In this document: piece by piece, positions 139 through 56,017 of the stretch
Layout: every line of letters starts with the position of its first letter
Position numbering within the stretch: the first letter of the stretch is position 1
Translations under genes and position numbers: made by a program
Assembly (NCBI GenBank): GCA_000165345.1
Contig: CM000434.1
Location: 832,001-896,000 of the forward strand
Length of the DNA: 64,000 nucleotides
Reading direction: 5' to 3'
The notes under the pieces: generated by a model
Database searches by the model: none
Seen by the model: only the letters and a program-made list of their open reading frames with translations
What the model was told of the DNA's origin: nothing

Positions 139-163
139 AAAGACAAAAAAAAAGTGGAAATAC

Positions 164-234
164 AGGAGCTACTGGGAATCGAACCCAGGCTACCGGAATC
201 AAAATCCGGGGTCCTACCGCTAGACTATAGCTCC
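164..234 (-). tRNA. tRNA-Gln (anticodon UUG)
   Basis: The reverse complement ggagctatagtctagcggtaggaccccggattttgattccggtagcctgggttcgattcccagtagctcc folds as a cloverleaf. The 7-bp acceptor stem pairs, the anticodon stem is ccgga/tccgg, the loop is ttTTGat, and the T-arm is gggttcgattccc. Confidence 0.85.
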
Positions 235-487
235 TTACGCCGCTATGGTGATTTTATAAAGAGTTAATCTATACAAATCAAAATATTAAGCTTAATAAAA
301 CTCAGATAAATTTTTGTTCAAGAAGGAAATTAACAAGGCATTCTATTTAAAGATTAATAAATAGATTATTCAATTAAATATTTTGGAAAATAAACGAAGT
401 TTAAAAAAATTTTTGATGAACTATTATGGAAGAAAATGATCAATGTTAAGTTTTGAGAGATAAAAGTATTAAGAAATAAATAAATAT

Positions 488-3508: not shown

Positions 3509-3675
3509 TAACTCCCCTTAGAAATTGAGAATATTTTTATTATAGGGGGAAAAATGGCAAAGTAAAAAAAAAAAAAAAAGTTATATACCGGTAATGACGT
3601 GTTAATTTTTTTTGAGAAATTATATTAAAAAAATAAAATTGCTTAAAAAGACCAGAATTATTATAAAAGGAAAAT

Positions 3676-7332: not shown

Positions 7333-7783
7333 GTTACATTTATTAATTCCACTTTATAGCTTAATGCTTACTTAAAATTTCCTGAATAAATATTAATTTA
7401 TCTTTTATTTAAGGTGGCAAAAGGTTTCAAAAATTATAGAATCAGAAAATATTCAAGATTTCTCAACTGCTGTGTTTATATTTATTAACCCAAATATAAT
7501 TCAAACAAGTGAATGTGTATTTATCTCATCAGGTCTTTTCTTCATTTGCAACTTTGCACACCTCTTAACTTGTTTTGTTAGCAAGTAAAACACTAGAAAT
7601 TGTCGAACTTGGTCTTTTACCAACATTTAATATTATTTGTCTACTTCAACTTTTATTTACTCTTTTTTTAATTATTAATACTATTTCTATTTCAAAAATA
7701 TTTTGTCCACATGAAATTTATTAATTTTCACACATACCGGTACTAAATATTTCTGATGACGTGTATAATTTTTTTTAATAAGT

Positions 7784-7848
7784 TTGCATGTGGAAATTGT
7801 CATACCGGTATATGCAATTACTATTATGTGTGGAAAAATTGCATGTAA
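7784..7848. promoter_or_regulatory. Motif module (TGCATG ... ATACCGGTAT ... TGCATG) upstream of the WD40 gene
   Basis: tgcatgtggaaattgtcataccggtatatgcaat...attgcatgtaag, with a second cataccggtac at 7735-7746. Confidence 0.4.
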
Positions 7849-10981: not shown

Positions 10982-11580
10982 TATTCAAAATTCCAATTAA
11001 TCAATCAATTTTAAATTCCACATACAATTCACACACACTAAGTGCATCACAAAATAATAAACACTCAAGTACCTCACAATTAATACGTCTATTCAAGTCT
11101 TATTCCAAAGTTATAATATTTAATGTGAATACTAACTATTTGGATGATCCACTCGTGTTAATAAACCAATCAAATCCGAAAAATGTTTCAATAATATTCC
11201 TTTTCAGCTCTTTTTATTATGTAATTATTCCTATTCCATCCTTCTATTCCAGTATTATAGAAGAAACTAAATTTAATACAAGGATTTTCCTTATATATTA
11301 ATCCTTTTATTAAACCAATTTTTCTATTACAAGCATTGGCGCCTAATTCTCATTCATACAAAAAGAATTTACTCTATAAAAAATTAATATATAATACTAA
11401 ATTATAACAGATTCAAGATTCACAGCTTAAAAAAAATCATCCTTTCCTCAAATGTTATCTGAGCTTCGATATCCTTGTTTCTTATTCAACTAAGAAAATC
11501 AACATTTATTCACTCCAGATAACTATTATATATACTTTCTTTATTCAGCCAAAATATGGCTGATTTCGAGATCTCACATA

Positions 11581-25593: not shown

Positions 25594-26180
25594 CTTTATA
25601 ATTCACCTTGATAACTTCAAGTTCATTAAATTTTCATATTATTTGCAGTTTATCTTAATCCAATTTAAATAGTAAATTATCTCATTAATCAGACTTGGAC
25701 TCTGCCTATGAGTTTATTACTTTATTTGATTTCTGAATAACTCTATCGGTGTGTTCAGTTTAATGTTATTGAATTTATTTCAATAGTGTCATTTCAAAGT
25801 TCTGGCACCTAGCTCCTTATAATAGCAAGCTGTATTAATCTTTTTGAAAATGTCTTATTAATTACTGCTGAAATACTAATAACCCGTTTTATTCAACTAA
25901 ATTACCTTATTAAAATTAAATTTCTTTCCTATTTCATTTATTAACATCGCCTTCACCATTAAACTCCCCCCATGTCGGTACCATAAAATAGCAATTTTTC
26001 CGCTCATTAATTGTAAAATTAATTTGCCCACATTAATTTGACAAAAAATTTCAAATCTTTAAATTAATTTACCATTTTTTGTTTTTAATTTAATTTCTTT
26101 AATAATTTTTTTTTTAACCTTTTTAACCCAAAACAATACAATTGCAATATAAATTGTCCACATTGAAAAAAAAAATTTAT

Positions 26181-26285
26181 TGCATGCATGCAATTTACAC
26201 GTAAGATTAAAAAAAGTGTGCATGTGGATGAATAACAATTGAACGAAGCTAATACCGGTATGTGAATTTTACATATTTACGTGGG
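26181..26285. promoter_or_regulatory. Motif module TGCATGCATGCAA-ACACGTAAG ... AATACCGGTATG ... TTTACGTGGG upstream of the giant gene
   Basis: Read directly. Confidence 0.45.
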
Positions 26286-28556: not shown

Positions 28557-28656
28557 TTGGCGCCTCTTTGTCGAAAAAGTCATGCACAGGTATATGCAAT
28601 ACTTTTGCATGTAGCTATATAAAATGTCATGCACTCATGTGGATAACACGTAATAA
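28557..28656. promoter_or_regulatory. TTGGCGCC plus CATGCAC/TGCATG/ACACGTAAT module
   Basis: Lies upstream of the 4-exon gene at 27753-28393. Confidence 0.4.
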
Positions 28657-35222: not shown

Positions 35223-35294
35223 GGGGTTATCCGGGAATCGAACCCGGGACCTCATGTACCCGAAACATGAATCATACCACTAGACTAACAACCC
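35223..35294 (-). tRNA. tRNA-Pro (anticodon CGG)
   Basis: The reverse complement gggttgttagtctagtggtatgattcatgtttcgggtacatgaggtcccgggttcgattcccggataacccc folds as a cloverleaf. It is near-identical in its D and T arms to canonical eukaryotic tRNA-Pro, and the anticodon loop is ttCGGgt. Confidence 0.85.
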
Positions 35295-36410: not shown

Positions 36411-36500
36411 TCCCGCCAAAATTCGTCAATTGCATGTAAGTCGTCCACAAAAATGCATGTAAATACCGGTTTATGAAAAAATGTGTATGACACGTGTATA
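36411..36500. promoter_or_regulatory. Motif module CCCGCCAAA ... TTGCATGTAAG ... ATGCATGTAAATACCGGTTT ... GACACGTGTAT
   Basis: Lies in the divergent promoter between the P5CR gene and the mucin gene. Confidence 0.45.
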
Positions 36501-36906
36501 TCAATTTTTTCAAAAAAAAATAGTGGGTATGACATCATAAATAGAAGCAGTTGCATGCGAAAGAAAAGTATTAAATTTTACATAAATTCGAGAGTTGTAT
36601 TATAATCATAATAAAAACAAAATAAAGATAGTAAATGTAAGGAAAGAATAAAAAGAAAGAATACAAAAAGAATATGATTAACAAAAAAAGTTAAAACTAA
36701 AGAATAAAGTTAAATATATTTGAGATTTACAGATATTTAATAACGTAATTATAAGTTAAATTGAAGATAGTATACATGGACATTAATAGGATTGAAATAA
36801 GATAGAAAAGTTAAAATACGAGAGAAAAAACTTAATATAAAGGGAACAAAAGCTAAGAGGCAATTAATATAGCAAAAGAAAAAGAAAATTCAATTAATTG
36901 TTTGAA

Positions 36907-39900
36907 ATGTTTACAGGGAGTGACTTGAAAAACTTAGTATTGAAAACTCTATTATTATTGCTACTGGAATACCTTATCATCAACTTTCCAGGAGTCTCAT
37001 CAATTGATGAAAAGGTTCAGGAAAGGAAAGATGATCCAGTAGCACATATGGACCCTGCCCCACCAATACTATTTAAGGAAATGAAAAGTCCAATTGTAGG
37101 AGTGGGTGATATTTGTTTTGGAAACAACTGTAACTATTACCAAGAAAGTAAAGAAAATAGTCCATCCAAAGACAGAGAAAGCTATCATTCAGTTGGTTCC
37201 AAAGTTACAAGGTATATATGTATATTATTATCAGAAAATACTTTTACTAGGGAAAAAGAGGCAGATTTGTTTTTTGAAAGATTAAATGAATATACAGAAA
37301 CTTCAGAATTGCCATTTTCATATGTTGAATTTTACGAGAAACTTGGAGTTTTTGTAATTGATGTTAGATCCAGTATTAAAGAGTATGAAGAACGCAGTAT
37401 ATTTCCCTTGGCTGAAGGTTTGAAACTTATCAAAAAGTTAGATATTTTAAACAAGGCTGACTGTACTAAAGATTCTCTTTTAAGTGAACAATCGGTATTT
37501 ACAAGTGGAAATGAAGATAAATCTACTGAGAATTACAGTAATAGCTATAAGTGGAATTGGAGCAGTATTCCTAATAATTTTGTAAATTTTAATCGAATCT
37601 TGAAATCCGAAGAGTCTCAAGGAAATATTACGAATAACAATCAAGGCACAGAATATTTAACAGATGAAGCAAAGCTATACAAAGAGTTGGATGGTTACTT
37701 TTTGAAAAAGTTCAATGAAGCATCTAATCTACTTAATAAACTAAATATGTTCTCTTCCCCATCCTCTTCATCATCAAATTTCAATAATCCTACTGTTTCA
37801 TCAACATCATTTTCCGGAGGGAGGCAATCTTCTCTTTGGAATGCACTCAACTTTTTATCCAGTTTCTCAAATAAGGAAGAAAAGTCTAGATCTACGCCAA
37901 TCCAGGAAATTGAAGATCCAATTTTTGGAAAAATGGACCCAACAGATGGTAATTCTAAATTAACAATATCTCCACTATACCTTCTTGGGATGAATCTCAA
38001 AGGAAAAAACATTACAGAGCTATCTCAAAAGTTCAAAAATCAAACATCTCCTATCGTTCCTGTAGATATGTCTAGAGAAGATATTAGCTTGGACAATGAT
38101 CTTGCAATGAATATAGCAACAGTAATCTTCAAAGGAATGAGTGATTCCGCTGCAAAGCTTCCACCTCCTTTTGGGAACCCTGCAGTCAAAAATGAGCAAA
38201 AGTTTCCAGAATATAATTACAAAAACCATATAAATTATCTTGAAACAAATGCAAATAATAACTATTATAATTCCCCATCAATCTCTAACTGGAGTTATAA
38301 ACCCATACCACAGGGTAACAATAATGTAATTGGTGGATATGAAAATGACCAAAGCCAACTCAATATTCAAAGTGATCACTTTAAAGGAGGAAGTTTTCAT
38401 CCAAGTTCAAGTAATAATGCTATCAATACAATTGATAATTCCATTATTGGATTTAATAGTGTTTCTCAAGTTAACTCAAATAGTAATTCTAATAAAGTAG
38501 GAGTTCATTCTCAATCTGGTTCTGGCTTAGCTCCAAATATTTTTGAATCAATAGATACATGGGGAAAACAGAGCTCAGCTTATCAATCAACTTCTTCTTC
38601 CGCCTCCCCTCCATCATATTATGCAACAAATGGTATTAAAACTATTAATCCAAATCAAGTGACTTCTAATGGAAAGAGTAATCCTGATTTAAAAGTACCA
38701 ACCATTAATTCTCCATCAACTTCAGAATGGATGAGAAAGACTATTTCAAAGCAAAATGAGGGTGGGATAAAGCAACCGTCATTTATTAACAGTCAAAATA
38801 ATCAAACAGAAATTAATAAATTTGCAAATAATATGAACCAAAATACCCCCCCAATTGTTAATTCAAATGGTAATCACTTTAATTCTCCATTTTCACAGCT
38901 TTCAAAGTTTTCTAACAATCCATTCCATGGAAATTCTGCCGGAACAACATTTGTCAAAATGAATGGTAGTGTTTTTGATGATGATAATGATATCACTTCT
39001 TTCCATCCTGAAGGATTTATCAATAAACTTCCAGAACATGTACAAAAGAATATGACTCAATCTCAAAGAGACAAAATTAACTTAATAAATGCATTTATTG
39101 GTACTGGATTTGATACAATTCTTCAGATGAATAATATAGATTCTAGTTCAAGTTATGGTAATCAGAATAATGATTTCTTTAGAAGTTCTCCTCCAAAAAG
39201 AAGATTATTTGAGATTGACTCTTCAACAAGAGGAAACAAAATGGTGATTGATGAAAACATGAAAGACCCGAATTTAAGTGATCAATCAAATAAAGAATAT
39301 GAAATGTATGCCAAATTGCTGAGTAATATTGATACGAACCAAGGTCAAGATACTGCAATGGCCTATGTGACAGGATGTGATTGTGATAGATTTCCTGAAG
39401 GAGTTGCATGTCCCATGGTGCTTTCAGGAGAAGCGAATATTGAATGTATTGGGTATAAAGTTTGGAATAGTGCAAGAAAAGGTGCTCCATTGAGTGAGAT
39501 AGCTTCAGCAATAGATTCTGCAATTACTTCTAAAGCAAGAAATATTATTTTGCCTTTAAAGTTTGATACAAAGACAATTGAAGAAAATCGAGCAGCTCCA
39601 AGAATTTTGAGGCACATCATGAGAAGAACTTCAAGAGAGAATGGAATACTATTTGCCTTACCAACAGGAAATAATGGTAAGCAGGAGTTGGATGGAAGCT
39701 TAGACTTTCCTTGCGACGATTTGACAGGAATGTACGCTTTTTGTGTGGGTTCAATTAACAACAAAAATGGAATGCCTTCGAGTTTTTCCAATGTTCCTCA
39801 GTTAAATAATGCAATCTATGCTAATGGTGAGGATGTTGAATCAATTGGAATAAATCAACAAAGACGATTATTTTCTGGTACCGGTATTGCTTTAGCTCAA

Positions 39901-43716: not shown

Positions 43717-43901
43717 GCATAGGAAAAACTACCCCACAGAATAATCATTCCAACTCTTCATGAATTACTTTGAAATAAAAAAAAAGATTTAAAAGGGAAC
43801 TAAGAAAAATTACAAAAATACCTAAGCAATAAAATTTGATTTCTTCCTCCTTCCCCCCATAAATCTAATATTAAAAATTTTTTAAAAAAAATATATAAAA
43901 A

Positions 43902-43949
43902 GGTACCCGGTACCTTTTTTTTGAAAGAAATTATATATGCCGGTATATT
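43902..43949. promoter_or_regulatory. GGTACC-C-GGTACC palindromic doublet flanked by A5/T6, plus ATGCCGGTATAT
   Basis: aaaaaggtacccggtacctttttt...atgccggtatatt lies 3' of the mucin gene and about 480 bp upstream of the TRAPP gene. Confidence 0.35.
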
Positions 43950-44421
43950 ATTTAACGGTGTGAAGATTAGCAAGAAAACTTTTTTTTTATTTAGGATCAT
44001 GGAAACTTGAAAGATTTGAGTTTTAATAGAGAAACAGTCAAAGCAGCTTTTTTTTTTTCTTCCTTTTATAACTCTAACTTAAGACACCAATAAATGGTGG
44101 ATCTGGAAATAAATATATATTAATATATTTCGATAATTCACCCGAAGTAAAAATTTGAAAATGCTGAAAATTGATAGGCAAAATAAAAAAGGGGCCTCTC
44201 AACCATTAGAAAGAAATATTATGAAATGTTCTCCTGAAGTAAGTTTTGAAAATGAGTAGGAAAGTTGGAGAAATGTATTTATAAATGTTATATTATATGC
44301 ATTACCAATTCCTTTATTTATTTGATTTCAACGTTATTATTATTCTATTTATATAAAATTCAAATTTTAAATATTTAAATATTAGATTAATTTAAGTTCC
44401 TTTGCATTTTTATTTTCTGAA

Positions 44422-45111
44422 ATGGTTCAATATTCCCTATCTTGCCTGAAACCAGGAATTAGGCTTGAAGATAAGTAAGTTGATAAAATATTGACTTTAT
44501 TACCTTTGATGGATTGCAAATTGTTAATTATTAACTCTTTTAAAATTAAAGACTTCATGAAATGGGGATTTCTGTTGGATTTAAAATAGTTGAGCTAATT
44601 TCAATTAGAGATAAAGCTCATCAAAAAAGAGAAACTAGAATACTTCAAATTCTTTCTTTTATATCTCAAAAGTGTTGGAAGTATTTATTTGGACATACTG
44701 GGGATTTACTTAAAGGGCAGGAATCTGATGATGAATGTAAGTTGAAAAATTATGATTTAAAGCTCAGAAAACCAAGAATATTTAAATTTCTTTTTCTCAG
44801 ATATGATCAATGATAAAAATCTTCTTTTAAACAAATTCATCTCTGTACCAAGGGTAGGTAGTGTTTGAATATTATTACAATAATAATAATTTTAACAAAA
44901 TGATTAATTAACCAATATTTAGGATCTTGAACATATTAATTGTGGTGCATATGCTGCAGGAATTGTATCAGGTATTCTAGATAGTTCAGAATTTCCTGCC
45001 AATGTGACAGCTCATACCACTGAAGATACCCCAAATAACTATAGTACAACCATTTTGATTAAATTCGACAAATCTGTACTTCTTAGAGATAAATCTATTC
45101 AATCATTTTAG
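44422..45111 (+). CDS. TRAPP complex Bet3-family subunit (Trs33/TRAPPC6-like), 4 exons: 44422-44474, 44552-44736, 44801-44853, 44923-45111
   Basis: Donors GTAAGT, GTAAGT and GTAGGT; acceptors ATTAAAG, TCTCAG and ATATTTAG; introns 77, 64 and 69 nt. Product is 159 aa. LHEMGISVGFKIVELI...SFISQKCWKYLF...YMINDKNLLLNKF...CGAYAAGIVSGIL...TAHT parallels TRAPPC6 (LENMGFRVGQGLIERF...KFICKDFWTTVF...YVLQDNKFRLL...CGLIRGGLSNL...TAEV). Only exon 2 appears in the track, as ORF 44562-44813. Confidence 0.7.
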
Positions 45112-45225
45112 TGAATAACTTTTTACTCATTTTCACTCTTATTTACAGAATTAGCTTGAATAATTATTTATATCAATATTAGATTATATACTTGATTACC
45201 AATAATTGTTGAATAATAAAAACCA

Positions 45226-47136: not shown

Positions 47137-47278
47137 ATTAATTACTTGATTTGATTATTCAGTTTTGAAGCTTTTTATATATTCTTGTAAAAAGAATTTC
47201 TTTTTTTTTTTAAAAAAAAAAATAACTTTTTTTAAAGAATTATTTAATTAAAACAAATGTTAAACTATTTTTTTCCAC

Positions 47279-47395
47279 ATGCATTTGTACAGCTCTATAA
47301 ATTTGTTGTATACCGGCATTTTAACAAATTTGCATGCATACGAAGTGACGTGTCATTTTTTTTTAAATGACTAATCGACACGTATGTGGACAAAT
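47279..47395. promoter_or_regulatory. Motif module CATGCA ... TATACCGGCAT ... TTGCATGCATACG ... GTGACGTGTCA ... GACACGTATGTGG
   Basis: Lies in the divergent promoter between the GH13 gene and the 48103 gene. GTTGGCGCG occurs at 47731. Confidence 0.4.
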
Positions 47396-50644: not shown

Positions 50645-50740
50645 CACACATGTGGACAAATAATTCAATACCGGTATTTCGTAATATGACAAAATTGCAT
50701 GCACATACGTGTAAAAAAAGTTTGCATGCAATTACGTGGT
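50645..50740. promoter_or_regulatory. Motif module ACACACATGTGG ... CAATACCGGTATTTCG ... TTGCATGCACATACGTG ... TTGCATGCAATTACGTGG
   Basis: Lies about 700 bp upstream of the 51438 gene, just 3' of the 48103 gene. Confidence 0.4.
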
Positions 50741-51437: not shown

Positions 51438-52787
51438 ATGAGTTACAATATTGACTGGCCAAGGCAGGATTCCATTGATAATATTGGTTGTTCATATGAA
51501 AACTTAAATTATGAACATAGATCAAGTACCGCATCTAATGGTGGGAAGAGCAGAGAAAATAGCATATATGCTAACACTGCGTTATTCGAAGATCATTTTT
51601 CCCCAAGACTTTCGGAGGGTCTGAACTCAATGAGATTTTCGGATATTGGGGATATGACAGAGGAAGAGTGGTAAGTTGAGAAGCAAACATTTGTTTCATC
51701 TAATACGTTATCTAATTATTATTATCATTATTATTCTAGGAATAAACAACAACAAAGACAAAACTCACAGAGATATGATGCTTTGTATATTGTAAGTGAG
51801 AAAGAAGAAGATATCATGAAGATGAAGGGTACTAAGGACAAGTTGAAATTCAAGGAAATTGGTAATGAATCAAGAAAAACCAATAAAGATTCAATTTCAG
51901 ACACTTCACTGGGATATATTTGTAGTTTGATATATAACTTCAGAAACAATAATACAATAAGAAGTAAACAGTCACAACTTACTTTATGGGAAATTATGAA
52001 ACAGTTTTACCTGATTAACAATTTATTTTTTATACTTAAAGTCTTAAAAACTTTAATTTCAAGTAATAAGACTCATAGACTAAGTCAAGATATGGGATGG
52101 GTTTCTTTTATGTGCCTATTATCAACTTTCATGACCAGTATATTGGCATATTTAACGAGATCATTCATATTTTATCATCGTATTGCTGATAAATATACAA
52201 ACAAGTTATTTTCACCTTTTCATGTTTATTGCCAAATAAGAAAAGTTGGTGACGAAATGCCTGAAGCTTTATTCATGCTGGAAAGAGTTAATTGGACTTA
52301 TACTTTAATAATGCATATATTGGAAGACATTCCCCAATTATTTGCATCTTCAATTTTCTTATCATACTATGGAAATGATTTTTATGCATTCTTCATGATC
52401 ACATGGAGTTCTTGTATGATCATTACAACTTCCATCAGAATGGGTATTTCTTATCCTCTTATTGGAACTTTAAGTCTTATTTTCTCCAGAAAACCTCCCG
52501 TTGATTCGCCTACTTTGAATGAAGCAACCACAACAACATTGCATTTTCCTCTGTTTATGGCTGCAATCACTTTTATTTGGGCAGTTTCAGATAGTTTATG
52601 TCTATATTTCACTCATGGTTTCTGGACTATCCTTTTTTATTTTGGTCTAACAGCAAATATTCTTGCATCTACATTGTTTATATTATATTATGTACATCTT
52701 TCTAAGCAAGCATCAGCATATACGCGCCAATTAAATTCACTTTATTTTACAGAAGACTTTAGCAGAATTCAGTCAAGACATTTTTAA
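51438..52787 (+). CDS. Polytopic membrane protein (hypothetical), 2 exons: 51438-51670 and 51740-52787
   Basis: Exon 1 (MSYNIDWPRQDS...MTEEEW) ends TG|GTAAGT. The acceptor TTATTCTAG ends at 51739 (69-nt intron) and is in-frame with track ORF 51783-52787, whose listed start is a TTG. At least 6 predicted TM helices. Confidence 0.6.
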
Positions 52788-54324: not shown

Positions 54325-55386
<1,062 letters not shown>

Positions 55387-56007
55387 ACTAGAACTTAAAG
55401 ATAAGTAAGAACGGAGTAAAACTTTTCGATACATAAACTCTCAAATTGGCATCATTTTATCGGCAATTGTTTTGCAAACCCTTTCAATGTCAACATGTTT
55501 TTCTCTGGCGCAAGCTACCATCTATCTCAATCGGATTTAAACATAAATGCCAACTTTCCCTGCTTCAAATCATCCTCTGCCACCACAGTTCTCTCGACTA
55601 CTCGTAGGGAAATACTGATGTTAAATTGCTAGCGTTGAAAGTGGTTCTTTGGGGGGTCCAGGGAGTTAGCGAGTTGTGTGTAAATGAACATTTACTACCA
55701 AGACTTACTATCGCATGCAGTTTAATCGCCTTTGAAGACTTTCTTCATTATTAGTGTCAAATAGTTTATTTCTCTGTTAATCGAAATGTTAATTACTCAA
55801 TTTCAATCTCAATTAGACCCTTTTTTCTCGAAAAATCGATCTGAGCTTTACTTCATTTAGTTTAATGTTTAGGAGCGAACTGTCCACATAAAATTAGTCA
55901 AGCATTACGTATATTGCTATTATGCTTTGCATGAATGGGGGGCGAAATAGTATTTTTTTATACCGGTATGCAAGTGGAGTGCAAAGAAATTACTAATTTG
56001 CATGTTT

Positions 56008-56017
56008 TTGGCGCCAA
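56008..56017. promoter_or_regulatory. Palindromic E2F-like TTGGCGCCAA, with TATACCGGTATGCAAG at 55959-55974
   Basis: Lies in the hexokinase promoter. Confidence 0.45.

Follow-up and report, generated by a model that had tools for sequence, protein, structure and literature searches.

The best-described promoter site of the kind considered here is AP2_1, written TGCATGCA or TGCATG(T/C)(G/A), which in the texts compared is a known element of C. parvum promoters (De Silva 2008; Oberstaller 2013, 2014; Hasan 2024); according to the same texts, several ApiAP2 domains, those of cgd2_3490 and cgd1_3520 among them, bind TGCATG(C/T)(A/G) on protein-binding microarrays (PBM). Macrogamont promoters are enriched in TGCATGYR (Hasan 2024), and a 2025 review, in which only six motif families are distinguished, gives cgd2_3490 and AP2-F, both AP2_1-type binders, as female-specific (Table 4). 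The most abundant upstream motif of C. parvum is the E2F/DP palindrome TGGCGCCA / TTTGGCGGGAA (Oberstaller 2013; Xiao 2025 preprint). Sporozoite ATAC-seq peaks contain E2F motifs and no AP2 motifs, with MEME returning E2F and poly-T only. Bankier 2003 is reportedly a further source for the E2F/DP upstream motif. More distant comparisons are offered by the 'billboard' modules of animals and yeast, in which a fixed set of short words is retained while order, spacing and orientation vary and individual sites turn over. Among Myb-type proteins, yeast Reb1 has the site TTACCCGG, and Myb elements are written TAACGG or YAACNG.

The motif cluster at 26181-26285 and its known relatives

The window, that is, the whole 64,000-nucleotide stretch of DNA analysed here, lies on C. 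parvum chromosome 6 and spans the genes cgd6_3570 to cgd6_3840. A first-pass annotation had described a recurrent promoter module at 26181-26285, made up of GCATGCA, ATACCGGTAT and ACGTG, and all of these elements are present there. The features of this target module are as follows, in window coordinates and with no strand assigned:

26155-26163: TGTCCACAT (reverse complement ATGTGGACA), an accessory word just outside the module
26181-26192: TGCATGCATGCA, in which two copies of the ApiAP2 'AP2_1' site TGCATGCA overlap
26197-26204: ACACGTAA, an ACGT-core element
26219-26228: TGCATGTGGA, in which an AP2 site of TGCATGYR type and a TGTGGA word are fused
26252-26261: ATACCGGTAT, a 10-bp palindrome, the new element
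26278-26284: TACGTGG, a second ACGT-core element

The site at 26219-26228 fits TGCATG(T/C)(G/A), the motif reported as enriched in macrogamont promoters. As in the AP2_1 promoters, an AP2_1 site is found in every full cluster, and this site is intergenic, palindromic and conserved; the TGCATG words of the clusters fit the PBM-defined motif and are both over-represented and conserved. Unlike the AP2_1 papers, which deal with a single motif, the clusters couple AP2_1 tightly with ATACCGGTAT, CACGTA and ATGTGGAC, partners that are not described in the texts compared. Neither ATACCGGTAT nor CACGTA matches a motif among the 25 that Oberstaller 2013 lists, those in Table 3 of the 2025 review or the PBM motifs named in the text of Oberstaller 2014, none of which contains CCGG or ACGT. 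In the Cryptosporidium full-text literature we found no motif paper for CCGGTA, ACCGGT or TACCGG. The first-pass annotation was right that GCATGCA and E2F-type sites are known promoter motifs, AP2_1 and E2F/DP both being in published catalogues, and its view that the palindrome and its coupling are the new part agrees with the absence of CCGGTA and ACGTG from the published motif lists compared.

The likeness to the E2F/DP site lies in an 8-bp GC-core palindrome that is over-represented in the same spacers and conserved between species. The E2F/DP site, unlike the CCGGTA and ACGTG words, marks sporozoite open chromatin and has a known factor. We rejected ATACCGGTAT and CACGTA as E2F sites, [A/T][C/G]GCGC[G/C][A/T], for want of a GCGC core. 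In the part of Li 2021 compared, the MEME 'motif4' found upstream of lncRNAs (Supplementary Table S3) has instances including CCTATACCGGCTGTC and CCCATACCGGGTGGA, and so overlaps with the ATACCGG half-site; it differs from ATACCGGTAT in that it is largely a tandem repeat of CCCATACCAGGTGGA upstream of one lncRNA, is non-palindromic and is absent from the main text.

The clusters resemble the 'billboard' modules in all the respects given above, and differ from them in being very compact (60-150 bp) within spacers of about 0.5 kb and in often serving two divergent genes. The half-site TACCGG, in our estimation, resembles the Reb1 site TTACCCGG, with one inserted C, and the Myb element TAACGG, with one base changed; as with Reb1/Myb-type sites, it is found in promoters near upstream 3' ends, and unlike them ATACCGGTAT is a 10-bp palindrome. 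ATACCGG was nonetheless rejected as a Myb/Reb1 consensus, since it departs from TAACGG at one base and TTACCCGG is longer by one; the likeness is a resemblance only.

Further clusters, over-representation and coupling

The other clusters of the window, again with no strand assigned, are:

3585-3601: ATACCGGTAAtgACGTG, in the divergent promoter of the myotubularin-related and Der1 genes; absent from the first-pass list
7707-7848: CCACATG, TACCGGTAC, ACGTG, TGCATGTGGA, ATACCGGTAT, TGCATGTAA, upstream of the WD40 gene cgd6_3610 (ATG 8367)
16299-16387: TGTCCACATG, TGCATGCA, ACACGTAA, ATACCGGTAT, GGCGGGG, in the divergent Ank (cgd6_3630) / PDI/Trx (cgd6_3640) promoter
18529-18586: CCGGTACC, CACGTGCATGC, GGCGGG, in the convergent (3'/3') Trx/Ank spacer
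28558-28651: GGCGCC, CATGCA, (CAGGTATAT), TGCATG, CATGCA, CATGTGGA, ACACGTAA, upstream of the WGG-domain gene (ATG 28393)
36412-36559: CCCGCC, TGCATGTAA, GTCCACA, TGCATGTAAATACCGGTTT, CACGTG, TGCATGCG, in the divergent P5CR (cgd6_3720) / subtilase (cgd6_3730) promoter
43907-43946: two CCGGTA sites (CCCGGTACC, ATGCCGGTAT) without any of the partner words, upstream of cgd6_3740, an unannotated TRAPP gene
47275-47390: CCACATGCA, TATACCGGCA, TGCATGCA, ACGTG, CACGTATGTGGACA, in the divergent amylase (cgd6_3750) / cgd6_3760 promoter
50649-50740: CATGTGGACA, ATACCGGTAT, TGCATGCAcatACGTG, TGCATGCAattACGTGG, between cgd6_3760 and cgd6_3770
55928-56016: TGCATGA, ATACCGGTATGCAAG, TGCATGT, TGGCGCCA, upstream of hexokinase (cgd6_3800), without ACGTG
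60792-60884: TGCATGTAAACACCGGTACGTGGCC, CCACGTAATAGGC, GCATGC, in the divergent ASP5 (cgd6_3820) / Arf GTPase (cgd6_3830) promoter

The nine further places at which the combination had been said to recur all hold motif clusters, but not always the full set: the one at 28581-28656 has no CCGGTA, with the degenerate CAGGTATAT in its place in C. parvum, the one at 55959-55996 has no ACGTG, and the sites at 47311 and 18529 are half-palindromes only. The CCGGTA sites at 43907 and 43940 had been overlooked. The order, spacing and orientation of the words vary among clusters and nothing aligns outside the short words, while some word pairs, for example TGCATGCAATT(T)ACACGT and TGCATGTAAA(T/C)ACCGGT, recur at similar spacing.

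The placement 100-700 bp upstream of a start codon proposed by the first-pass annotation holds in that every cluster but one lies in a spacer with at least one gene 5' end, the exception being 18529-18586, which has no adjoining 5' end; the measured range is somewhat wider, about 90-790 bp. Five clusters lie between divergent 5'/5' gene pairs, 90-500 bp from both ATGs. Several clusters are 560-790 bp from the downstream ATG and just 60-215 bp past the stop codon of the upstream gene, for instance 50649-50740 (129-214 nt past the cgd6_3760 stop and about 700-790 nt ahead of the cgd6_3770 ATG at 51438), and three of five tandem spacers have their cluster 119-173 nt past the preceding stop codon, with 210-743 nt left to the following ATG.

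The intergenic enrichment of the words is strong. TACCGGTA occurs eight times in the window, seven of them intergenic, against 0.13 expected from dinucleotide shuffles, and is the most over-represented intergenic 8-mer of the window, above TGGCGCCA and TGCATGCA; allowing at most one mismatch, ATACCGGTAT occurs 11 times against 0.73 in shuffles. By an order-2 Markov expectation, there are 20 intergenic CCGGTA words where 1.16 would be expected, and 5 genic ones against 2.1. All 11 CACGTA words are in spacers (2.0 expected there, and 3.25 expected in genes, where none occurs). TGCATGCA has nine exact occurrences, six of them intergenic against 0.15 expected, and the clusters hold many TGCATGT(A/G) besides. 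The count of a single CCGGTA in coding sequence (39881) was too low, since two CDS loci carry it, 21153 and 39879/39881; further genic occurrences are at 61867, inside the intron-containing Arf gene, and at 191, inside the tRNA-Gln gene. The only structured RNAs that Rfam and ARAGORN gave in the window are tRNA-Gln (163-235) and tRNA-Pro (35223-35294), and a structured-RNA reading of the clusters was rejected.

The tight coupling of the palindrome with GCATGC and ACGTG is confirmed by a co-occurrence test within the window: of the CCGGTA sites with TGCATG/CATGCA or ACGTG in the same spacer, all ten are at most 60 bp from each, where a within-spacer null gives 2.5 and 2.2 (p<0.0002). E2F sites show weak proximity to CCGGTA and no coupling to ACGTG. 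Across sites, the CCGGTA half-site has the consensus ATACCGG, and 20 intergenic instances of the ACGT-core element give (A/C)CACGT(A/c/g), with the ACGT core in 20 of 20 oriented instances and CACGTG in 4 of 20, which come from two palindromic sites scored once per orientation. An asymmetric form is favoured, and the ACGTG element is better written (A/C)CACGTA. ATGTGGAC recurs too, which brings the word types of the module to at least four or five. CATGTGG was tried as the fourth word and dropped, its conservation not being above background; TGTGGAC / TCCACA makes the better core.

The cluster is also found beyond the window. In flanking C. parvum DNA, CACGTAA..ACCGGTAT..TGCATGCAA..TTACGTG lies upstream of cgd6_3550, and four lncRNA sequences of other loci bear the same cluster; Cp_lnc_62 starts inside a cluster and Cp_lnc_51 and Cp_lnc_256 each contain one. 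The 65 published macrogamont promoters (about 23.5 kb, Hasan 2024), one of which is the 588-bp cgd6_3720/cgd6_3730 spacer, contain eight TACCGGTA. A search for independent C. parvum loci by way of ASP5 paralogs yielded orthologues only.

Conservation across Cryptosporidium

Orthologous loci were compared in eight Cryptosporidium species besides C. parvum. Pairing of non-orthologous spacers was uninformative as a conservation null, because motifs present in many spacers inflate it, and was dropped in favour of per-species Markov ranks and conservation at aligned positions. Between C. parvum and C. ubiquitum, identity is 97% for CCGGTA, 87% for ACGTG and 85% for TGCATG, against a spacer background of 64%. 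An unbiased ranking of conserved spacer 6-mers is headed by CATGCA, ATGCAA, CCGGTA, ACACGT, CACGTA, GCGCCA and TCCACA, and GTCCAC and TGGACA, like TCCACA, rank among the most conserved of these words. The conserved fraction of CCGGTA is 80%, compared with 20% for non-motif 6-mers with at least four G or C.

At the target module, TACCGGT is the longest invariant block in an alignment of five species. TGCATGCATGCA is conserved out to C. ubiquitum, with TGCATGC retained nearby in C. felis. Of the ACGT-core element at 26197-26204, C. meleagridis and chipmunk genotype I retain ACGTGtaaatTGCATGCATGCA, and C. ubiquitum retains ACGTGttaacTGCATGCATGCA. Chipmunk genotype I has lost the second one, at 26278-26284, which is present in C. 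meleagridis and C. ubiquitum; all three have the TGTCCACAT word in the form ATGTGGACAA.

C. meleagridis retains the CCGGTAT of 16299-16387, its distance to the Trx ATG unchanged; in the convergent spacer at 18529-18586, C. ubiquitum retains both TGCATGCA and TACCGG, and TGCATGCA is also retained in C. meleagridis and chipmunk genotype I. Where C. parvum has the degenerate CAGGTATAT at 28558-28651, chipmunk genotype I and C. ubiquitum carry TACCGGTG at the orthologous position, and C. ryanae and C. andersoni carry TACCGGC. The word set of 36412-36559 is shared with C. meleagridis and C. ubiquitum and is reordered in the unalignable spacer of C. ryanae. The amylase/cgd6_3760 promoter has CCGGTA and GCATGC also in C. 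ubiquitum, C. felis and C. muris; ATACCGGTAT and TGCATGCA of 50649-50740, and likewise CCGGTACGTGGCC and CCACGTAATAGGC of the ASP5/Arf promoter, are retained in C. ubiquitum and C. felis; and C. ubiquitum carries ATACCGGCATGCAAG at the place matching the hexokinase-upstream cluster. Its L7Ae/SNF2 promoter carries TTACCCGGTAA.

CCGGTA recurs at orthologous promoters whose flanks are unalignable, out to C. muris, C. andersoni and C. ryanae, and takes a place between 3rd and 8th when intergenic 6-mers are ordered by over-representation in C. parvum, in C. ubiquitum, in C. felis (46-48% GC) and in the gastric species. CATGCA is the top such 6-mer in six of seven species sets, and stands third in the pooled gastric species and fifth in C. 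ryanae. Coupling of CCGGTA with TGCATG is found at 9 of 10 sites in C. ubiquitum, 6 of 9 in C. felis and 2 of 2 in C. ryanae, and is weak in the gastric species; the pairing thus extends to C. felis and C. ryanae, while the three-way coupling with ACGTG is confined to the parvum-ubiquitum clade. Judged from these alignments, the words are under purifying selection with turnover of individual sites, and ATACCGGTAT, conserved across the genus, is probably the binding site of a gene regulator.

Expression and competing explanations

A check against expression timing, proposed by the first-pass annotation, was made for genes of the window. In the time course of Mauzy 2012, nine genes with a CCGGTA cluster peak later than eight without one (p=0.002; genes with data), and the female-up list of Tandel 2019 includes 7 of 13 cluster-facing genes but only 1 of 11 others, with log2 fold changes of +1.3 to +9.2. 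Hasan 2024 gives cgd6_3720, cgd6_3730, cgd6_3750 and cgd6_3820 as female-specific. The cluster-bearing cgd6_3610, cgd6_3650, cgd6_3770 and cgd6_3550 are outside the female-up list, and the bias of cluster-facing genes to late or female-gamete expression is a weak one, drawn post hoc from about 24 neighbouring genes and not exclusive. At about 1.2 words per kb, CCGGTA is as dense in the 65 macrogamont promoters as in the window spacers, and so gives no evidence that the palindrome itself is female-specific.

The interpretation we favour, and consider likely, is that the clusters are cis-regulatory modules, with sites for several DNA-binding proteins in one class of Cryptosporidium promoters. 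Each cluster of 60-150 bp would be a working part of its promoter, in which TGCATG(C/T)(A/G) would be the ApiAP2 component and ATACCGGTAT, (A/C)CACGTA and ATGTGGAC(A) further putative sites. These would act on double-stranded DNA in a 'billboard' arrangement, free in order, spacing and orientation, so that one cluster could serve both genes of a divergent pair. The palindromic form of ATACCGGTAT suggests a dimeric factor; as candidate binders we assume a Myb-domain protein or an AP2 domain without an array motif. C. parvum is listed with one non-CCAAT bZIP. We take this single bZIP as the candidate for CACGTA. Expression from the clusters would be low in sporozoites and early stages and would rise late (36-72 h), notably in female gametes; as the AP2 factors that bind TGCATGYR are reported to be female-specific, the partner sites would modulate or gate their action.

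A rather unlikely alternative, and still the most serious one, is that ATACCGGTAT, rather than serving a stage-specific activator, is recognised across the genus by a general regulatory or boundary factor outside the AP2 family, probably a protein of Myb/Reb1 type. This factor would keep a nucleosome-free region open, block read-through and partition the tightly packed transcription units; TGCATG and CACGTA would be the actual stage-specific promoter elements, with stage-specific AP2 sites assembling beside the palindrome. The position of the cluster near the upstream stop codon in three of five tandem spacers, and of one cluster between two convergent 3' ends, would be expected of such a factor; yet the palindrome is absent from five of six true 3'/3' spacers and from several tandem spacers, and is found deep in divergent promoters, which have no 3' end in need of insulation. 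Its occurrence upstream of genes with unrelated expression (cgd6_3550, cgd6_3610, L7Ae), its equal density in macrogamont promoters and window spacers, its standing as the most conserved word and its over-representation in gastric species despite the weak TGCATG coupling there all fit a general factor, whereas the MEME motifs of sporozoite open chromatin are E2F and poly-T only. The resemblance of TACCGG to the Reb1 site TTACCCGG and to Myb TAACGG, together with TTACCCGGTAA at L7Ae/SNF2 in C. ubiquitum, would hint at the protein type, but a Reb1-like protein is not known from Cryptosporidium. It is more improbable again that the clusters are bidirectional promoters chiefly of antisense lncRNAs running into the upstream gene, rather than of the mRNA of the gene lying far downstream. 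Most antisense lncRNAs of C. parvum start at gene 3' ends, with E2F and AP2_1 motifs at most 100 bp upstream (Li 2021), and Cp_lnc_62, Cp_lnc_51 and Cp_lnc_256 begin in or contain clusters; such promoters would account for the 3'/3' cluster and for the clusters close to upstream stop codons. Set against this are modules 4, 5 and 9, which have no match in the examined part of the Li 2021 lncRNA sequences, the five clusters in divergent 5'/5' promoters near both ATGs, and the coherent late or female expression of the downstream genes.

That the clusters arose by chance or from base composition, or are what is left of a dispersed repeat, we regard as highly improbable. In AT-rich spacers words containing GC are rare and may look clustered, and the word pairs at similar spacing could be read as traces of a repeat; but the Markov and shuffle expectations are exceeded 17- to 128-fold, GC-containing words outside the motifs are far less conserved than CCGGTA, and the sites are orthologously conserved in nine species. 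A mobile-element remnant was specifically rejected, for the likeness ends at short words in variable order and the sites correspond by orthology rather than by transposition.

Few transcription factors can be recognised in Cryptosporidium, and the majority of the promoter motifs catalogued for it are without an assigned binding protein. The palindrome is the most strongly conserved spacer word and adjoins an AP2 site implicated in female-gamete differentiation; it offers both a bait for pull-down of its regulator and defined bases to mutate in the existing C. parvum reporter systems. Should it prove to be a boundary site, ATACCGGTAT would join E2F and ApiAP2 as a third pillar on which promoters are built in this ultra-compact genome. 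On the reading that we favour, that of modules for several proteins, the partner sites may give specificity to TGCATGYR sites that are bound by several AP2 proteins, which is a testable idea; and since female development is required for oocyst formation and transmission, its regulators are of practical interest.

Word composition of the spacers

Several lines of evidence identify the window as C. parvum chromosome 6, from about cgd6_3570 to cgd6_3840. The base composition is 30.5% G+C and the genes are eukaryotic; over the 14.9 kb that it shares with a C. parvum chromosome 6 record the window shows no differences, and the GAPDH ORF matches PDB chain 1vsu at 100% identity. The upstream lengths of GAPDH and hexokinase agree with the values of Mullapudi 2007 for cgd6_3790 and cgd6_3800, published RT-PCR primers for cgd6_3610 to cgd6_3840 have exact matches on the ORFs, and an antigen peptide of cgd6_3730 is encoded at 38596. 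Gene models were adjusted with the help of annotated records from orthologous loci and from the same species. Two large apparent spacers, 43717-45225 and 10982-13473, actually contain intron-bearing genes that a plain ORF scan overlooks; these are given here with two tRNA genes.

163-235, minus strand, tRNA-Gln(TTG), enclosing the seemingly intergenic TACCGG at 191
11717-12989, minus strand, 367-aa gene in the apparent spacer 10982-13473
35223-35294, minus strand, tRNA-Pro(CGG)
44562-44813, plus strand, exon of the TRAPP subunit cgd6_3740 in the apparent spacer 43717-45225

Occurrences of the palindrome and related words in the window
TACCGGTA, whole window: observed 8 (7 intergenic), expected 0.13 (dinucleotide shuffles)
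ATACCGGTAT, up to one mismatch: observed 11 (10 intergenic), expected 0.73
CCGGTA words, intergenic: observed 20, expected 1.16 (order-2 Markov)
CCGGTA words, genic: observed 5, expected 2.1
CACGTA, intergenic: observed 11, expected 2.0
CACGTA, genic: observed 0, expected 3.25

An unbiased k-mer screen placed TACCGGTA first among over-represented spacer 8-mers, above the known E2F octamer TGGCGCCA and AP2 octamer TGCATGCA. The first-pass annotation had described a module of GCATGCA, a CCGGTA palindrome and ACGTG at 26181-26285, and every element that it named is present there. Motif clusters occur at all ten places where it saw the combination, although CCGGTA is missing at 28581-28656 in C. 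parvum and ACGTG at 55959-55996. Its single CCGGTA in coding sequence was an undercount, as two CDS loci carry the word, and further sites lie at 3585-3601 and 43907/43940. An exact TGCATGCA was also seen in the GAPDH CDS (55269-55276), with the stop codon 117 nt on and the hexokinase ATG ~960 nt downstream; it could be chance or a piece of the hexokinase upstream region.

Within 60 bp of a CCGGTA word, TGCATG/CATGCA was found at 10 of 15 sites and ACGTG likewise at 10 of 15, where random re-placement over all intergenic bases gave null means of 1.9 and 1.4. Under a stricter null, in which sites were re-placed inside their own spacer only, the tight coupling originally proposed held: all ten CCGGTA sites with the partner words in the same spacer had both partners no more than 60 bp away (null 2.5 and 2.2, p<0.0002). 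By the same null, E2F sites were weakly coupled with CCGGTA and no coupling of ACGTG with E2F was seen, so that the pattern is more than a general accumulation of all motifs in promoters. The promoters seem to use two vocabularies that are partly distinct. The palindrome consensus is ATACC-GGTAT (26 half-sites), that of the ACGT core (A/C)CACGT(A>C,G) (20 instances), and ATGTGGAC(A) is an additional recurring cluster word. Order, spacing and orientation of the words all vary between clusters, which speaks for words that act on double-stranded DNA rather than copies of a dispersed repeat. Separately, ~270 nt ahead of the CFIm25/NUDIX gene cgd6_3810 (ATG 58221), TTGGCGCGCGCGCCAA (57940-57953) forms a double E2F-type site that is palindromic.

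The same words recur elsewhere in C. parvum. The chromosome beside the window, examined over about 13 kb, contains one further full cluster, upstream of cgd6_3550 (CACGTAA, ACCGGTAT, TGCATGCAA and TTACGTG within 125 bp), and a TACCGGG site in the SNF2-L7Ae promoter. Among the lncRNA sequences printed in the Li 2021 supplement, at least four have the identical word set (Cp_lnc_62, Cp_lnc_51, Cp_lnc_256 and one adjoining Cp_lnc_288). The 65 macrogamont-specific gene promoters of Hasan 2024 (~23.5 kb) contain 8 TACCGGTA, 21 distinct CCGGTA sites and 11 CACGTA/TACGTG, counts far above compositional expectation.

Conservation across Cryptosporidium

Syntenic loci of the F-box gene region were compared from C. 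meleagridis, chipmunk genotype I, C. ubiquitum, C. felis, C. ryanae and C. andersoni, and of the hexokinase region from C. ubiquitum, C. felis and C. muris. In a five-species comparison of the 26181-26285 cluster, the longest invariant block is TACCGGT; ACGTG-N5-TGCATGCATGCA and ATGTGGACAA are retained as far as C. ubiquitum, and in C. andersoni CCGGTA..TACCGG lies 110-127 nt upstream of the orthologous ATG. The C. felis loci have 46-48% G+C, where the other eight species have ~29-34%, and their synteny is preserved, so that motif retention there is a stringent test of conservation; TACCGGTA and TGCATGC are retained amid unalignable flanks. The amylase-cgd6_3760 promoter keeps CCGGTA and GCATGC out to C. 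muris, while ATACCGGTAT and TGCATGCA downstream of cgd6_3760, and CCGGTACGTGGCC...CCACGTAATAGGC in the ASP5-Arf promoter, are retained in C. ubiquitum and C. felis. The C. ryanae P5CR-subtilase promoter has the identical word set in changed order. In the 210-WGG spacer (28581-28600), chipmunk genotype I (L006 8999) and C. ubiquitum (L002 9004) have TACCGGTG/TACCGGTGCA where C. parvum and C. meleagridis have TACCTGTGCATG; this is site turnover, in which a CCGGTA site turned into a TGCATG site without a change of position.

Identity between C. parvum and C. ubiquitum is 97% for CCGGTA, 85% for TGCATG, 87% for ACGTG and 86% for E2F, against a spacer background of 64%, and a ranking of all 6-mers by aligned conservation is led by CATGCA, ATGCAA, CCGGTA, ACACGT, CACGTA, GCGCCA and TCCACA. 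Among over-represented spacer 6-mers, CCGGTA ranks 3rd in C. parvum, 5th in C. ubiquitum, 6th in C. felis and 8th in the gastric species, and is not near the top in C. ryanae, for which the sample is small; high ranks of CACGTA (6th-20th) are confined to C. parvum, C. ubiquitum and C. meleagridis. Coupling of CCGGTA with TGCATG was found in C. ubiquitum (9/10), C. felis (6/9) and C. ryanae (2/2), and was not seen in the gastric species.

Three other elements were observed. The C. ubiquitum Ank-Trx spacer (L002 ~19040-19075) has TGCATGCA grown to a (TGCA)7-like run where C. parvum has GCATGCACGTG. Between the 26181-26285 cluster and the cgd6_3650 ATG, the TATGGTACCGACATGGGGGG block (25966-25985, minus strand) is conserved to C. 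ubiquitum, with a similar GGTGCCGACGTGAGGGG in C. felis; it may be a core-promoter, TSS or G-box element. The coding sequence of the SET-domain gene cgd6_3840 holds ATGTGGCAAAATCCATTGCATGCATGCAACCAAAACATGTATATGGCGCCAAAAG (63240-63300), which joins a TGTGG word to TGCATGCATGCA and an E2F site and recurs nearly base for base in C. ubiquitum (L007 ~17070-17145) and GC-rich C. felis (L008 ~17005-17080); either an intragenic promoter or mere conservation of the peptide could account for it.

Promoter class and proposed role

As the first-pass annotation held, GCATGCA-type and E2F sites are known, both octamers being well described; both were reportedly noted for chromosome 6 in 2003. On arrays, the AP2 domains of cgd2_3490, cgd1_3520 and others bind the AP2 octamer (Oberstaller 2013, 2014), TGCATG(T/C)(G/A) is the most enriched macrogamont promoter motif (Hasan 2024), and in a 2025 review the binders of this AP2_1 site given as female-specific are cgd2_3490 and AP2-F (cgd4_1110); sporozoite ATAC-seq peaks have E2F motifs and no AP2 motifs. 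Cluster-bearing spacers are five divergent and five tandem, each with at least one gene 5' end, and one convergent exception. Expression in the Mauzy 2012 time course was later for nine genes that face a CCGGTA cluster than for eight without one (expression-weighted mean times 28-61 h vs 15-41 h; Mann-Whitney p=0.002). Eight genes of the segment are female-up in the sorted cells of Tandel 2019 (cgd6_3640, 3720, 3730, 3750, 3790, 3800, 3820 and 3830; log2 fold changes +1.3 to +9.2), seven of them facing a cluster: 7/13 cluster genes vs 1/11 others (Fisher p=0.027), a link that, like the time-course one, is post hoc and small, among neighbouring genes and divergent pairs with a common cluster. 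Four of the eight are labelled female-specific in Hasan 2024, and the cgd6_3720-3730 spacer is one of its 65 promoters. Given the gene 5' ends, the AP2_1 literature and these expression data, the clusters are probably cis-regulatory modules, compact and flexible, that belong to a class of promoters with late or female-biased activity; in them the known AP2 site would act jointly with orphan sites.

Two other readings persist. Some genes outside the female-up set (cgd6_3550, 3610, 3650 and 3770) have clusters upstream too, and CCGGTA density in the macrogamont set (~1.2 words per kb) is not above that of the window's spacers, so that the palindrome may be a general element and not female-specific; this would fit a site for a Reb1-like boundary or general regulatory factor, a reading that we consider unlikely. 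The distance from the upstream stop codon to the cluster is 119-173 nt in three of the five tandem spacers, with 210-743 nt from there to the next ATG, and another cluster has a 3' end on either side, an arrangement that suits both such a factor and promoters of antisense lncRNAs, whose starts in C. parvum are mostly at gene 3' ends (Li 2021). However, no match to the clusters numbered 4, 5 and 9 turned up in the part of the Li 2021 lncRNA sequences searched, and we regard lncRNA promoters as quite improbable.

ATACCGGTAT, CACGTA and ATGTGGAC are in none of the 25 motifs of Oberstaller 2013, are not among the PBM motifs named in the Oberstaller 2014 text, and do not appear in the 2025 review motif table, the ATAC-seq study or the macrogamont promoter work; full-text searches for Cryptosporidium with CCGGTA, ACCGGT or TACCGG returned primer matches only. 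The nearest motif in print is the lncRNA-upstream MEME 'motif4' of Li 2021, which, in the instances visible, shares only the ATACCGG half-site with the palindrome, derives largely from a tandem repeat and is undiscussed in the main text. The palindrome and its coupling, singled out at the outset as the novel part, are thus missing from the motif lists and texts compared, and the claim of novelty is limited to these. The finding is real and the interpretation first given to it is supported: without being categorically new, the palindrome and its partner words are an orphan promoter motif conserved across the genus, one that is useful and directly testable.
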